Both the position numbers and the translations under genes were made by a program. Positions 3,497-26,007 of a stretch of 32,000 nucleotides of DNA are shown piece after piece. Below the pieces are notes generated by a model that saw nothing but the letters and a program-made list of their open reading frames with translations, was not told where the DNA came from and ran no database searches. The stretch's first letter is position 1, and each line of letters starts with the position of its first letter. The stretch covers positions 2,160,001-2,192,000 of the forward strand of contig NC_002937.3 of NCBI RefSeq assembly GCF_000195755.1, read 5' to 3'. Source of the stretch: Nitratidesulfovibrio vulgaris str. Hildenborough (lineage in GTDB: Bacteria; Desulfobacterota; Desulfovibrionia; Desulfovibrionales; Desulfovibrionaceae).

Positions 3497-3574
3497 CGGG
3501 ATGTGGCTCAGTTTGGCTAGAGCGCAGCGTTCGGGACGCTGAGGCCGGAGGTTCGAATCCTCTCATCCCGACCA
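3497..3574 (+). tRNA. tRNA-Pro (anticodon CGG), CCA encoded
   Basis: Hand-folded cloverleaf, 78 nt. Acceptor stem CGGGATG/CATCCCG. D arm GCTC-AGTTTGGCTA-GAGC. Anticodon arm CAGCG-TTCGGGA-CGCTG, giving anticodon CGG. Variable loop AGGCC. T arm GGAGG-TTCGAAT-CCTCT. Discriminator A, then CCA. Confidence 0.9.
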
Positions 3575-19489: not shown

Positions 19490-19567
19490 TCCACCGTCAC
19501 CGTTACATGTTGCGGCATTTTTTTCCGAAAACGGGCAAGGAGGGCACCCCGGACGCAGGAGGTGACC

Positions 19568-20404
19568 ATGAGCATCGAGGCAACTGGACTGGGAAGCGGC
19601 GGATTGCAGGGCATCTGGCCCCACAAGGGCAGGGGCGTCACGTCGCGAGTGGCGAACATGATGCTGAAGGAGATGGATGCCGATGCAGACGGCAAGCTGT
19701 CACAGACGGAATCGGGCCTGTCCGAGACGGCATTCAAGGGGCTTGATACCGACGAGGACGGTTCCGTAAGCCGCAAGGAACTGAAGGCGGGGCTGCGCAG
19801 CAGGCGTGACCAGCTCATGTCCATGCTCGAACAAGGGCCGGACGAGGGAGACGACTCCACGGCGCAGCAGACCGGGCAGACCGGGCAGACCGGGCAGACC
19901 GGGCAAACAGGGCAAACAGGGCAGGCCGGGCAAGTAGGGGCTGCCGCCGGACTGGTGAAGAACATCCTTTCCAAGCGGGATGCAGACGCCGATGGCACCC
20001 TGTCAGAAGAGGAGGCGGGCCTCTCTTCGACGACGTTCGACTCTTTCGACACCAATCAGGACGGGGTGCTCAGCGCCGAAGAACTCGCGGCGGGCTTCGA
20101 CAAGATGTTCGAGACCATGCGCGCCCTGCGAGACATGATGGGCAACGAGGAACACGCCGGGCCGGGGGCCATGCAACGCGCCGTGGCCGCCTACAAGGGG
20201 CAGATGAGCGGGCTCATGAAGGGCCTGTTCGAGACCGAGACCGACAGCGCGGGGGCCGAGACCTCTGGCACTGCGTCAGATACGGCAGCCACCGGCACGG
20301 TAGCGACGGACACGGCAACGACTGGCACGGGAACAACTGGCACGACGACAGCAGGAACAGGCACGACCGAGAGCACCACTTCCGGCATTTCTGCCACAGT
20401 CTGA
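19568..20404 (+). CDS. Four-EF-hand calcium-binding-motif protein with a Q-T-G repeat linker and a T/G-rich tail, 278 aa
   Basis: ORF track 19562..20404. ATG 19568 is preferred, since AGGAGG at 19557..19562 lies 5 nt upstream. Four canonical 12-residue loops: DADADGKLSQTE, DTDEDGSVSRKE, DADADGTLSEEE, DTNQDGVLSAEE. No signal peptide. Confidence 0.8.
   Translation: MSIEATGLGSGGLQGIWPHKGRGVTSRVANMMLKEMDADADGKLSQTESGLSETAFKGLDTDEDGSVSRKELKAGLRSRRDQLMSMLEQGPDEGDDSTAQQTGQTGQTGQTGQTGQTGQAGQVGAAAGLVKNILSKRDADADGTLSEEEAGLSSTTFDSFDTNQDGVLSAEELAAGFDKMFETMRALRDMMGNEEHAGPGAMQRAVAAYKGQMSGLMKGLFETETDSAGAETSGTASDTAATGTVATDTATTGTGTTGTTTAGTGTTESTTSGISATV
19868..19939 (+). repeat. In-frame 9-bp tandem repeat, 8 units, inside the EF-hand gene
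   Basis: CAGACCGGG x4 (19868..19903), CAAACAGGG x2 (19904..19921), then CAGGCCGGG and CAAGTAGGG. It encodes QTGQTGQTGQTGQTGQTGQAGQVG. Confidence 0.95.
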
Positions 20405-23450: not shown

Positions 23451-24248
23451 TCACGCCTGCCCGCCAAGGAAGCCCGTCAGCGGCGACGATGCCTCGGCCC
23501 TGCCGTCGAGCACACGGCCCGCACGGGCGAGAAAGGCACGCCGTCCCGCGCGCACGGCCTCGCCAAAGGCCCGCGCCATGGCGACGGGGTCTCCGGCGCT
23601 TGCGATGGCGGTGTTCACAAGGCACGCCGCCGCGCCCATCTCCATGGCATCGCACGCCTCCGAAGGCTTGCCGATGCCCGCATCCACCACGATGGGCAGC
23701 GACATCTCCTCGATGAGGATGCCGATCATCTCACGGGTGCGCAGCCCCCGGTTCGTACCGATAGGCGCACCGAGTGGCATGATGGCGGCGGCCCCGGCAT
23801 TCTCGAGGTCGCGGGCCACATAGAGGTCGGGGTTCATGTAGGGCAGCACCGTAAAGCCCTCGGCGGCGAGAATCTCCGTGGCGCGTGCCGTGGCGTATCC
23901 GTCGGGCAGCAGATAGCGGCTGTCCGAGATGATCTCGATCTTGATCCAGTCACCGCACCCTGCGGCGCGTGCCAGCCGGGCGATGCGGACGGCCTCGTCG
24001 ACCGTCCGCGCCCCGGATGTGTTGGGCAGAAGCCGCATGTGCGCGGGGATGTGCGCCAGCACGTTGCCCTTGGGGTTGCCAAGGTCTACGCGCCGGAGCG
24101 CCACGGTGATGACCTGCGAGCCGGAGGCATCGGCCACGGCAGGGATGAGCGCATCCGTACCGTATTTGCCCGTGCCGATGAAAAGGCGGCTTTCAAGCGC
24201 CTGTCCGCCCAGCACGAACGTGTCGTCGTGTCGTGTGTCGTGTGTCAT
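23451..24248 (-). CDS. thiG: Thiazole synthase
   Basis: ORF track. Motifs [51 protein letters not shown]. Its start overlaps the thiS stop (TAATG). Confidence 0.95.
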
Positions 24249-24448
24249 TAGCCTCCTCCCACAAAATGAAGGATTTCCAGTGTGTCACCCTGTTCGAGGC
24301 CCATGTCTCCGAACGCCTCGGCCTTCACGATGGTCCCGTTACGCTCGACGACGACGGTACGGGGGTCGAGCCCCTGCCGCCCCAGAAGGGCGAGCAGCGT
24401 AACGCCGTCTTCGCAAGCGACTTCATGACCGTTCACAACTATCGTCAT
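24248..24448 (-). CDS. thiS: Sulfur-carrier protein ThiS, 66 aa, C-terminal GG
   Basis: ORF track. [10 protein letters not shown] ... [18 protein letters not shown] at 24462..24457, 8 nt before the ATG. Confidence 0.9.
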
Positions 24449-24560
24449 CGCCGTCTCTCCTTCTGCCGGGTTGTCTGCTGACGCCTGCCAAGGCCGACCG
24501 CCCCGCCTGCCCTGCCGCCATAGTCGCAGGCAGGGCGCAAAGGCGATGCGGCGGGCGCCG

Positions 24561-24698
24561 GAAAAACAGAACGCCCATCCGCAGAGGATGGGCGTACGGA
24601 CGCATGTCCGGTGCGCGGCTTCCCTACGGCAGTGCTAACTGCGTCAGGTTCACAGGGTCTGGGACGAACCCACTCTCAGCCCGAAGGCTCCCCTAGCT
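24561..24698 (-). promoter_or_regulatory. TPP riboswitch, promoter-distal / thiS-proximal copy (aptamer plus intrinsic terminator)
   Basis: The minus-strand aptamer at 24696..24618 reads CUAGGGGAGCCUUCGGGCUGAGAGUGGGUUCGUCCCAGACCCUGUGAACCUGACGCAGUUAGCACUGCCGUAGGGAAGC. It carries the THI-box hallmarks GGGG, CUGAGA, ACCC, AACCUGA and CGUAGGGAA. The terminator is GCCCAUCC-UCUGC-GGAUGGGC (24593..24573) with the tail GUUCUGUUUUUC. Confidence 0.9.
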
Positions 24699-24726
24699 CC
24701 GGTCGCGACGGCGACCGCTGATACTC

Positions 24727-24864
24727 GAAAAACAAAAAAGCCCATCCGCAGAGGATGGGCGAACGGACGTTGTCCGGCGCTCAGCTTCCCTACGGCAGTG
24801 TGAACTGCGTCAGGTTCACAGGGTCTGGGACGTGCCCACTCTCAGCCCGAAGGCTCCCCTAGCT
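24727..24864 (-). promoter_or_regulatory. TPP riboswitch, promoter-proximal copy (aptamer plus intrinsic terminator)
   Basis: A second aptamer at 24862..24784, nearly identical to the first and offset by 166 nt. The terminator stem-loop is identical (24760..24740), with the tail UUUUUUGUUUUUC (24739..24727). Confidence 0.9.
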
Positions 24865-24874
24865 GACTGAACGC

Positions 24875-24904
24875 ACAGTAGCCTCCCGTGTCTGGTCTTG
24901 TAAA
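24875..24904 (-). promoter_or_regulatory. Candidate sigma-70 promoter of the thi leader
   Basis: On the minus strand, TTACAA (24903..24898), a 17-nt spacer, then TACTGT (24880..24875). This places the transcription start a few nt before the first aptamer. Weak motif match. Confidence 0.3.
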
Positions 24905-25335
24905 GCCCTTCGAGGCGAAAATCGCAGGTGTGTCGCCCCTGCGGCCGCACTCCGGACAGTGGCGACCCCACGCTCATGCGGCAACCACCTGCCACGACAG
25001 AAGTTCGCGCGGGAAGCAGGCACAGGGGACACAACCGAAGCACGTGCCACATGGAGATGCCACCATGTCACAGCCCCCTTACCGGTCATTCACAAGGGCA
25101 CAAACCGCTACAGGCGGGCATCCCCTCCCTGCATCGGGAGACTGACGCAGCACCTGACGCCCCCCCATGCGCAATGATGCACTCTCCCATCATACCGAAG
25201 TGGTTGCCGACTTGTGCACTATTGAAGCATGATGCAACCGACCGACTCGACTCATGCCGCGAACTTCCATGCTTATTCCGCGACGCTGGCGACGACAGGC
25301 AGTATTGAACCGCACCCGGACACAGGATAGACACC

Positions 25336-26007
25336 ATGAGACTCTCCGATGTCGATCTTGTCGAACTTCTTGAACGTCCTGGCAACAGATCATTCTCCTC
25401 CATATTCTCTTCACGCATCGTGATGCGCGGGCAATCCGTCTTTCGGCCCGACATGGAAGACGACATGATCCTCATTGTGCGTAGCGGTAGACTACGTGTC
25501 TATCTTGCTTACGGCGACAAGGAGTTCAGCCTTGCATTTCTCGGGAAGGGAGACATCTACAGCAGCCACACAGGCGCGTATGTACAGGCGTTGACCGAAA
25601 GCGAGATCATGCTTGCCGAAACACATCTCGTACACCGGCATATGGCATCAGTGACTGCAATATCGTCTATCATGGTGCGCATCCTCGGGCAGATGCTACG
25701 GTCGAGTTTCTTCCTCATCGAGAGCATGGTCTTCAAGGACAGTAACACCCGTCTGGCAGCGCTCCTTCTTGAACAGGCAGAAGACAGCGACAGGAACAGA
25801 CAACAACCTGCCGATGACATGTCAGATTTGCCTGACATCCACCTTGAACTCACCATGGAACAACTCGCCGGGCTTGTGGGAACAACCCGGCAGACCGCAT
25901 CCACCCTGCTCAACGACATGATACGGGCGGGCATCCTGCAACGCAGGGGGCGGGGACACTTTGTGGTACTGGATATGACCCGGCTACGCGAAATAGCCCT
26001 TCAATGA
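25336..26007 (+). CDS. cooA: CRP/FNR-family regulator, CooA-like CO sensor, 223 aa
   Basis: ORF track. GRLRVYLAYGDKEFSLAFLGKGDIYSSHTGAYV parallels my recollection of Rhodospirillum rubrum CooA around the heme ligand His77 (GRLRVYLVGEEREISLFYLTSGDMFCMHSGCLV). The HTH TMEQLAGLVGTTRQTASTLLNDMIRAGILQRRGRGHFVV parallels TVEEIANLIGSSRQTTSTALNSLIKEGYISRQGRGHYTI. It lies directly upstream of cooS. Confidence 0.8.
   Translation: MRLSDVDLVELLERPGNRSFSSIFSSRIVMRGQSVFRPDMEDDMILIVRSGRLRVYLAYGDKEFSLAFLGKGDIYSSHTGAYVQALTESEIMLAETHLVHRHMASVTAISSIMVRILGQMLRSSFFLIESMVFKDSNTRLAALLLEQAEDSDRNRQQPADDMSDLPDIHLELTMEQLAGLVGTTRQTASTLLNDMIRAGILQRRGRGHFVVLDMTRLREIALQ

Follow-up and report, generated by a model that had tools for sequence, protein, structure and literature searches.

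The leader of the thiSGHFE operon in Nitratidesulfovibrio vulgaris Hildenborough carries two TPP riboswitches in series, each with its own aptamer and its own terminator. The whole account proposed here, in which two self-contained TPP OFF-riboswitches act one after the other, the tandem is old, and a copy of the promoter-proximal unit 1 has recently taken the place of the thiS-proximal unit 2, is held with good confidence. The initial annotation had claimed two complete TPP riboswitches with terminators before thiSGHFE. This claim was borne out by two full-length matches to the Rfam TPP model RF00059, two terminator-like sites and the genes found downstream.

The tandem is an already known feature. 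Rodionov et al. 2004 (Genome Biol 5:R90, PMC545781) described tandem THI-elements 5' of thiSGHFE in Desulfovibrio, with D. vulgaris Hildenborough among the genomes analysed. In the relevant passages of that paper they stand as the first tandem riboswitches to be predicted, and the explanations weighed there are cooperativity, a shifted threshold and a 'recombination remnant'. The locus and the organism are the same as here, and the feature itself does not differ; the earlier remark that the tandem was probably not undescribed was right, since these passages name thiSGHFE explicitly. The same passages are silent on the contrast between the nearly identical D. vulgaris copies and the diverged copies of relatives. 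No paper linking tandem riboswitches to gene conversion came up in a full-text search, which is weak evidence of non-description. The copy-over in N. vulgaris seems to be an unreported detail.

The window is the whole 32,000-nt stretch of DNA that was analysed. On its minus strand, the order is a promoter-like motif, an aptamer, a small hairpin, a terminator, a spacer hairpin, a second aptamer, a small hairpin, a terminator, 110 nt and the thiS start codon. The leader of the thiSGHFE mRNA is about 420 nt long. The thiamine genes lie directly 3' of both TPP units; thiS, thiH, thiF and thiE were assigned by NCBIfam equivalog matches and thiG by Pfam.

24248..24448, minus strand: thiS, TIGR01683 equivalog, 78.5 bits
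23451..24248, minus strand: thiG, Pfam PF05690; thiazole synthase AAS96567.1
22114..23448, minus strand: thiH, TIGR02351 equivalog, 487.6 bits; start set as in the called gene of L082, 444 aa
21488..22129, minus strand: thiF, NF006395 equivalog, 255.9 bits
20539..21219, minus strand: thiE, TIGR00693, 209.5 bits

Upstream of the leader lie divergent genes for a CRP-family regulator, cooS and a cooC-like ATPase, and the ThiG and CooS of this stretch are identical to AAS96567.1 and AAS96571.1 of N. vulgaris Hildenborough, respectively.

The search with RF00059 gave two significant matches, both on the minus strand, which enclose the intervals predicted in the initial annotation (24784..24862 and 24618..24696). 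Both are full length (model positions 1-105) and exceed the gathering score of 54.3 bits.

24770..24870, minus strand: TPP aptamer 1, promoter-proximal; RF00059 match 24870..24770, 67.7 bits, E=1.9e-11
24604..24704, minus strand: TPP aptamer 2, thiS-proximal; RF00059 match 24704..24604, 58.8 bits, E=2.9e-09

A permissive Rfam rescan of 24300-25400 gave nothing credible beyond these two matches; an anti-hemB match in the same interval stood at chance level (18 bits vs a gathering score of 49.5). The core of a TPP aptamer was defined by CUGAGA, ACCCU.UGAACCUGA and CGUAGGGAA, together with the helices P2 to P5. The core segments GGCUGAGAG, GACCCUGUGAACCUGA and CCGUAGGGAAGC are present in both copies, and P2, P3, P4 and P5 are intact in both. 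Both predicted aptamers would bind TPP. Aptamer 2 is the same as aptamer 1 in the core and in P2 to P5, the loops excepted.

The repeat finder gave two direct repeats, 24605-24698 vs 24771-24864 (94 nt, 93% identical, spacing 166) and 24559-24602 vs 24726-24769 (44 nt, 86% identical, spacing 167), in agreement with the direct duplication of about 166-167 nt noted at the outset. The loop differences quoted at that time are all present, namely CACG/UUCG in P3, UCAC/UAGC in P5 and AAC/AUGC in the linker hairpin. The claim that the differences fall in loops also holds: units 1 and 2 differ at 15 of 140 aligned columns, and 14 of these 15 are at unpaired positions (Fisher one-sided p=1.1e-4). The sole difference in a helix is in the 3' strand of P1 (24783 in unit 1, U to C). 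P1 is where the copies had been said to contrast, and they do. In aptamer 1 it has 6 bp, UCAGCU (24866..24861) with AGCUGA (24786..24781), whereas in aptamer 2 only GCU/AGC is in register, giving 3 contiguous pairs, and 2 of the 5 P1 pairs of this copy are non-canonical according to Rfam.

Each aptamer has its own U-tailed terminator-like site, as in tandem complete riboswitches of the Bacillus anthracis tenA type. A full terminator with its U-tract stands between the two aptamers, which differs from the one common platform of the glycine type.

24728..24760, minus strand: intrinsic terminator 1, stem GCCCAUCC-UCUGC-GGAUGGGC (24760..24740), then UUUUUUGUUUUU
24561..24595, minus strand: intrinsic terminator 2, stem ACGCCCAUCC-UCUGC-GGAUGGGCGU (24595..24571), then an interrupted U-tract UCUGUUUUUC
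24764..24776, minus strand: linker hairpin 1, CGGAC-AAC-GUCCG, predicted antiterminator apex
24597..24610, minus strand: linker hairpin 2, CGGAC-AUGC-GUCCG, from the folds and the unit alignment
24700..24717, minus strand: inter-unit spacer hairpin, CGGUCGC-CGUC-GCGACCG, directly 5' of aptamer 2

The core stem GCCCAUCC-UCUGC-GGAUGGGC is common to both terminators. In the terminator scan, the stem of site 1 (24760..24740) is followed by the downstream tail UUUUUUGUUU. The terminator 1 hairpin alone folds at -14.6 kcal/mol, and this terminator is orthologous to terminator 1 of two related loci, L087 and L088. Terminator 2 has a GC-rich stem of 10 bp with five U within the next 10 nt, and its U-tract is broken by C and G (UCUGUUUUU).

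A predicted promoter stands ahead of the first unit.

24875..24904, minus strand: predicted sigma-70-type promoter, conserved motif ahead of aptamer 1

It consists of a -35 element TTTACA (24904..24899), an 18-nt spacer and a -10 element TACTGT (24880..24875). When five tandem leaders are aligned, the columns of CTTTACA and TAnTG do not vary, and the motif CTTTACA-N17/18-TAYTGT is found just 5' of aptamer 1 in 15/15 tandem loci compared, across genera. Transcription would start near 24868, which is 2 nt before P1 of aptamer 1. The conserved motif is present solely 5' of aptamer 1, and the promoter scan found no promoter-like site between the two units. The generic sigma-70 scan missed the conserved motif and gave a site at 25218..25189 instead.

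The proposed mechanism is as follows. At low TPP, the G-rich strands of the aptamer (3' GUAGGGA, 5' CUAGGGG or both) would be free and would base-pair with the next terminator, at its 5' arm and loop (…CGC..CA.UCC.U.CUGC), around the linker hairpin, and this antiterminator would block formation of the terminator and let RNA polymerase continue. With TPP bound, P1, P2 and P4 of the aptamer would hold the G-rich strands; the GCCCAUCC/GGAUGGGC hairpin would then form before the U-tract, and 3' ends would be expected near 24728 for unit 1 or near 24561 for unit 2. In the predicted structures, both candidate antiterminator strands are buried in the TPP-bound aptamer, which is the classical aptamer/antiterminator/terminator logic.

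The folding of unit 1 is consistent with this scheme. In its MFE fold without the 3' arm of the terminator, GUAGGGA..UG..GCG (24793..24778) pairs with CGC..CA..UCC.U.CUGC (24761..24748) around the linker hairpin. This antiterminator fold is at -41.0 kcal/mol and the ligand-free aptamer fold is at -31.4 kcal/mol, so that the former is about 10 kcal/mol lower. In unit 2, unlike unit 1, the partner strand in the MFE fold is the 5' G-rich strand (24697..24690). The duplex of the aptamer 3' strand with the terminator 5' arm and loop was also scored against 300 shuffles. Across the tandem loci, this complementarity had p<=0.05 in 17 of 37 units. The duplex in the two N. vulgaris units was not above the shuffles (p=0.48 and 0.32), and in unit 1 the hairpin finder chose a shifted stem. 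Therefore, the antiterminator is given here as a thermodynamic prediction only. The initial annotation had listed the linker hairpin as a module. The hairpin is present in both units, but the prediction places it at the apex of the antiterminator, in a duplex that is not significant against shuffles here, and not a separate module.

To reach thiS, the polymerase would have to escape from both terminators, and read-through would therefore be the product of two ligand-dependent probabilities. Such a product would give less leak and a sharper response than one switch. A steeper, more digital response to TPP would be expected by analogy with the B. anthracis precedent. Because of its weaker P1 and its interrupted U-tract, unit 2 probably leaks more than unit 1 and responds less sensitively.

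In order to place the tandem among its relatives, a survey was anchored on ThiG, not on the riboswitch. It comprised 80 loci, all of which were Rfam-scanned, and 3 closest relatives were added from the protein database. Tandem TPP matches are found 5' of thiS-thiG in 15 of the 80 ThiG-anchored loci, or in 18 of 83 when the closest relatives are included. The tandem-bearing genera are Nitratidesulfovibrio, Oleidesulfovibrio, Halodesulfovibrio and Desulfobaculum, together with MAGs that have no genus assignment. A single TPP match is present in 37 of the 80 loci (Bilophila, Lawsonia, Mailhella and others), and the remaining ones have no TPP match within the scanned DNA. All three closest relatives, whose ThiG is 87-88% identical, have the tandem. 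The tandem is old in Desulfovibrionaceae.

Both units appear to be under selection. When the two copies were aligned separately, compensatory changes were seen at 6 of 22 predicted pairs in copy 1 and at 9 of 26 in copy 2; the comparison of relatives' leaders proposed earlier thus found stems kept by compensatory changes at both aptamer positions. Within the species, nine N. vulgaris leaders were compared, those of Hildenborough and eight others, including strain DP4 and the complete genome CP116246.1. Across the 265 nt that make up aptamers, linkers and terminator stems no site varies, vs 21 variable sites in 622 nt elsewhere (p=5e-4). The placement of 14 of the 15 differences between units 1 and 2 at unpaired positions (p=1.1e-4) points the same way. 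Given that several genera retain the tandem, with compensatory changes in both copies, and that the units show no polymorphism within the species, the comparison supports the maintenance of both units by purifying selection. The initial annotation had reached the same conclusion from the pattern of differences between the near-identical units. The conclusion stands, but the reason given does not, because the near-identity of the N. vulgaris units comes from a recent, species-specific copy-over and not from long co-maintenance.

The copy-over is seen when aptamer copies are compared within and between genomes. The two copies in N. vulgaris Hildenborough are 92% identical, vs 70-82% in 15 other tandems. 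Among the relatives, copy 2 is orthologous across species: the identity of copy 2 to copy 2 is 0.80-0.83, and that of copy 1 to copy 2 is 0.73-0.79. Copy 2 of N. vulgaris breaks this pattern, as its identity is 0.82-0.88 to copy 1 of its near relatives and 0.71-0.78 to copy 2 of the same genomes. In the clustering it groups with its own copy 1 and with copy 1 of L087; the sister pairing of the two N. vulgaris copies has a bootstrap value of 67% only, over about 82 aligned positions. The expression platforms agree with the aptamers. In relatives the second platform is unlike the first, with a different terminator in L001-type genomes, L088 and L089. The closest relative, L087, whose ThiG is 88% identical, lacks a terminator after its second aptamer, and a hairpin CCCG-UCUG-CGGGAG overlaps the thiS ribosome-binding site (L087:2143-2300). 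This suggests that the L087 tandem combines one transcriptional and one translational switch. Unit 2 of N. vulgaris, on the other hand, bears the terminator of unit 1.

24559..24698, minus strand: converted tract of unit 2, a copy of unit 1 (24726..24864) with aptamer core, linker and terminator

Directly 5' of the repeat, the spacer hairpin together with the outer portion of P1 still resembles the L087 spacer. These features are most simply read as a copy of unit 1 having been written over unit 2 (about 24559-24698), by way of gene conversion or of unequal recombination and then loss. On the same reading, the event would be younger than the separation of N. vulgaris from the L087 lineage and older than the divergence of its strains. 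The weak P1 of copy 2 would then be a scar of the copy-over, with an ancestral 5' strand and an imported 3' strand. A single-pair signature of copy 2, G-C for A-U at the base of P2, was considered and set aside, as it is not universal: A-U is found in Halodesulfovibrio (L025, L027 and L030) and in Desulfobaculum (L074). The argument for the copy-over therefore rests on the overall identity and on the common terminator.

The stretch between terminator 2 and the thiS start was considered separately.

24449..24558, minus strand: remainder of the 5' UTR from terminator 2 to the thiS start, GC-rich, 110 nt

It has no counterpart in L087, L088 and L001 by alignment, folds no better than shuffled sequence (z=-1.0) and has 3 variable sites within N. 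vulgaris. It was rejected as a relic of the ancestral second aptamer or platform, because the relatives have no alignable counterpart. An 11-nt match (CGCCCGCCGCA) to the L001 spacer is too short and too GC-rich for interpretation. A hairpin GCCCUGCC…GGCAGGGC lies inside this stretch on the minus strand.

A rival explanation is that only unit 1 works and that unit 2 is a neutral or decaying product of recent recombination with little or no regulatory role. Unit 2 scores 58.8 bits against the gathering score of 54.3 and has 2 non-canonical pairs among the 5 of P1. Its U-tract is interrupted, it is a recent copy, and a 'recombination remnant' was already raised in the relevant part of Rodionov et al. 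2004. With 3 contiguous P1 pairs and such a U-tract, unit 2 may bind or terminate poorly. Nevertheless, all stems of unit 2 except P1 are intact and its differences from unit 1 lie in loops and linkers (p=1.1e-4). Its polymorphism is zero in the nine N. vulgaris leaders, in which the flanking leader is variable. A second aptamer is also kept in at least 4 named genera with compensatory changes, which argues for a selected second switch. A decaying unit 2 is thus considered unlikely, and two working switches remain the preferred reading.

The way in which the two switches are joined bears on their independence. The spacer hairpin of N. vulgaris folds at -11.8 kcal/mol (p=0.06 vs shuffles) and resembles the L087 spacer. 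A hairpin between terminator 1 and aptamer 2 is predicted in 14/14 tandem loci folded, among them L087, L088, L001, L004, L010, L014, L016, L024-27 and L074. The sequences of these hairpins are unrelated, and 7 of the 14 are at p<=0.035 vs shuffles. The spacer hairpin may therefore be an insulator or a pause element between the switches. Each unit would act independently of the other. Cross-unit pairing of near-identical aptamer or terminator strands, leading to true cooperativity or to a third state, would contradict this. The terminators are indeed mutually complementary (22-nt arms, 86%, 146 nt apart), and the MFE structure of the whole leader has long-range pairs of the unit 1 5' end with unit 2. 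Cooperativity is speculated on as well in the relevant passages of Rodionov et al. 2004. The whole-leader fold, on the other side, is no more stable than that of shuffled sequence (z=-0.94), and its MFE structure mis-folds the aptamers because tertiary and ligand terms are absent from it. The stable spacer hairpin in all 14 tandem loci folded is insulation-like, and the B. anthracis tandem acts independently. Since the copies of relatives are diverged and their terminators unrelated, cross-pairing cannot be a conserved function. Pairing between the units as the mode of action is accordingly given very little weight.

It is equally improbable that unit 2 acts mainly otherwise than by intrinsic termination, through Rho-dependent termination, mRNA stability or translation with the hairpin secondary: the second aptamer of L087 has its hairpin over the thiS ribosome-binding site in place of a hairpin and U-tract, and the U-tract of terminator 2 is suboptimal, but the 110 nt from terminator 2 to the thiS start make direct masking of the ribosome-binding site unlikely, and terminator 2 has a 10-bp GC-rich stem with five U within the next 10 nt.

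Two serial TPP-gated terminators, the preferred reading, have counterparts among known systems. The tandem TPP riboswitches of the B. anthracis tenA leader are reportedly treated in Welz & Breaker 2007 and in Sudarsan et al. 2006. According to secondary descriptions, that leader has two TPP switches, each of which terminates transcription on its own (PMC5367253, PMC12121620); it is the precedent that the initial annotation also named. The likeness is close, as both leaders have two complete serial TPP OFF-switches, each with its own aptamer and intrinsic terminator, which respond to the same ligand before a thiamine-related operon. They differ in phylum, in operon (tenA… in B. anthracis) and in origin, and the B. 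anthracis pair was tested in vitro whereas the N. vulgaris pair is known from sequence. The tandem glycine riboswitch also has two same-ligand aptamers in one leader, but those aptamers dock and use one platform; in N. vulgaris there is a terminator per aptamer and a spacer hairpin between the units. The SAM and AdoCbl tandem of Bacillus clausii metE is alike in being made of complete serial switches, each with its own terminator. It is unlike in having two ligands that form a logic gate, while both units of N. vulgaris are TPP aptamers.

No experimental follow-up on the thiSGHFE tandem of D. vulgaris Hildenborough (DvH) was found in the literature. A 2019 preprint on DvH riboswitches still called the thiamine elements predicted. 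TaRTLEt (2025) included DvH RNA-seq and had no DvH TPP switch among the six with termination activity, in conditions that were not chosen to vary thiamine.

The significance beyond confirmation is small, as the tandem was published in 2004 and its architecture was later validated in B. anthracis. Nevertheless, the host is a genetically tractable sulfate reducer. The tandem across genera, the replacement of unit 2 by unit 1 in N. vulgaris only and the apparently translational second unit of one relative make a clean system for asking why two switches beat one. Specifically, the ancestral diverged second switch and its platform may have been overwritten and then kept free of polymorphism, which would be a natural experiment on switch number vs tuning; we offer this tentatively, as a suggestion that falls somewhat short of an even chance. 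If it is true and adaptive, selection in Desulfovibrionaceae would preserve the number of serial TPP-gated terminators, as opposed to a pair of sensors with different tuning, and the locus would document concerted evolution between the units of a tandem riboswitch.

Some minor observations were made in the same window. The called ThiH varies in length across the loci compared (L081-L086, L090 and L091, besides Hildenborough): N. vulgaris genomes give 430, 431 or 444 aa, and the nearest other species give 386-401 aa. Such variation suggests that a low-complexity insert close to the C-terminus (…AAAAIAASTAISSGDATGDLSG…) is polymorphic for indels. The thi promoter is separated from the divergent CRP-family (cooA-like) gene by an apparently non-coding interval of about 430 bp (24905-25335); it has no Rfam match and contains the majority of the sites in the leader region that vary within the species. 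An ORF on the plus strand (19562-20404) has a GQT repeat run (…QQTGQTGQTGQTGQTGQTGQAGQ…) and several D-x-D-x-DG-like motifs. A tRNA gene is located at 3497-3571 on the plus strand, with 65.2 bits in the Rfam scan.
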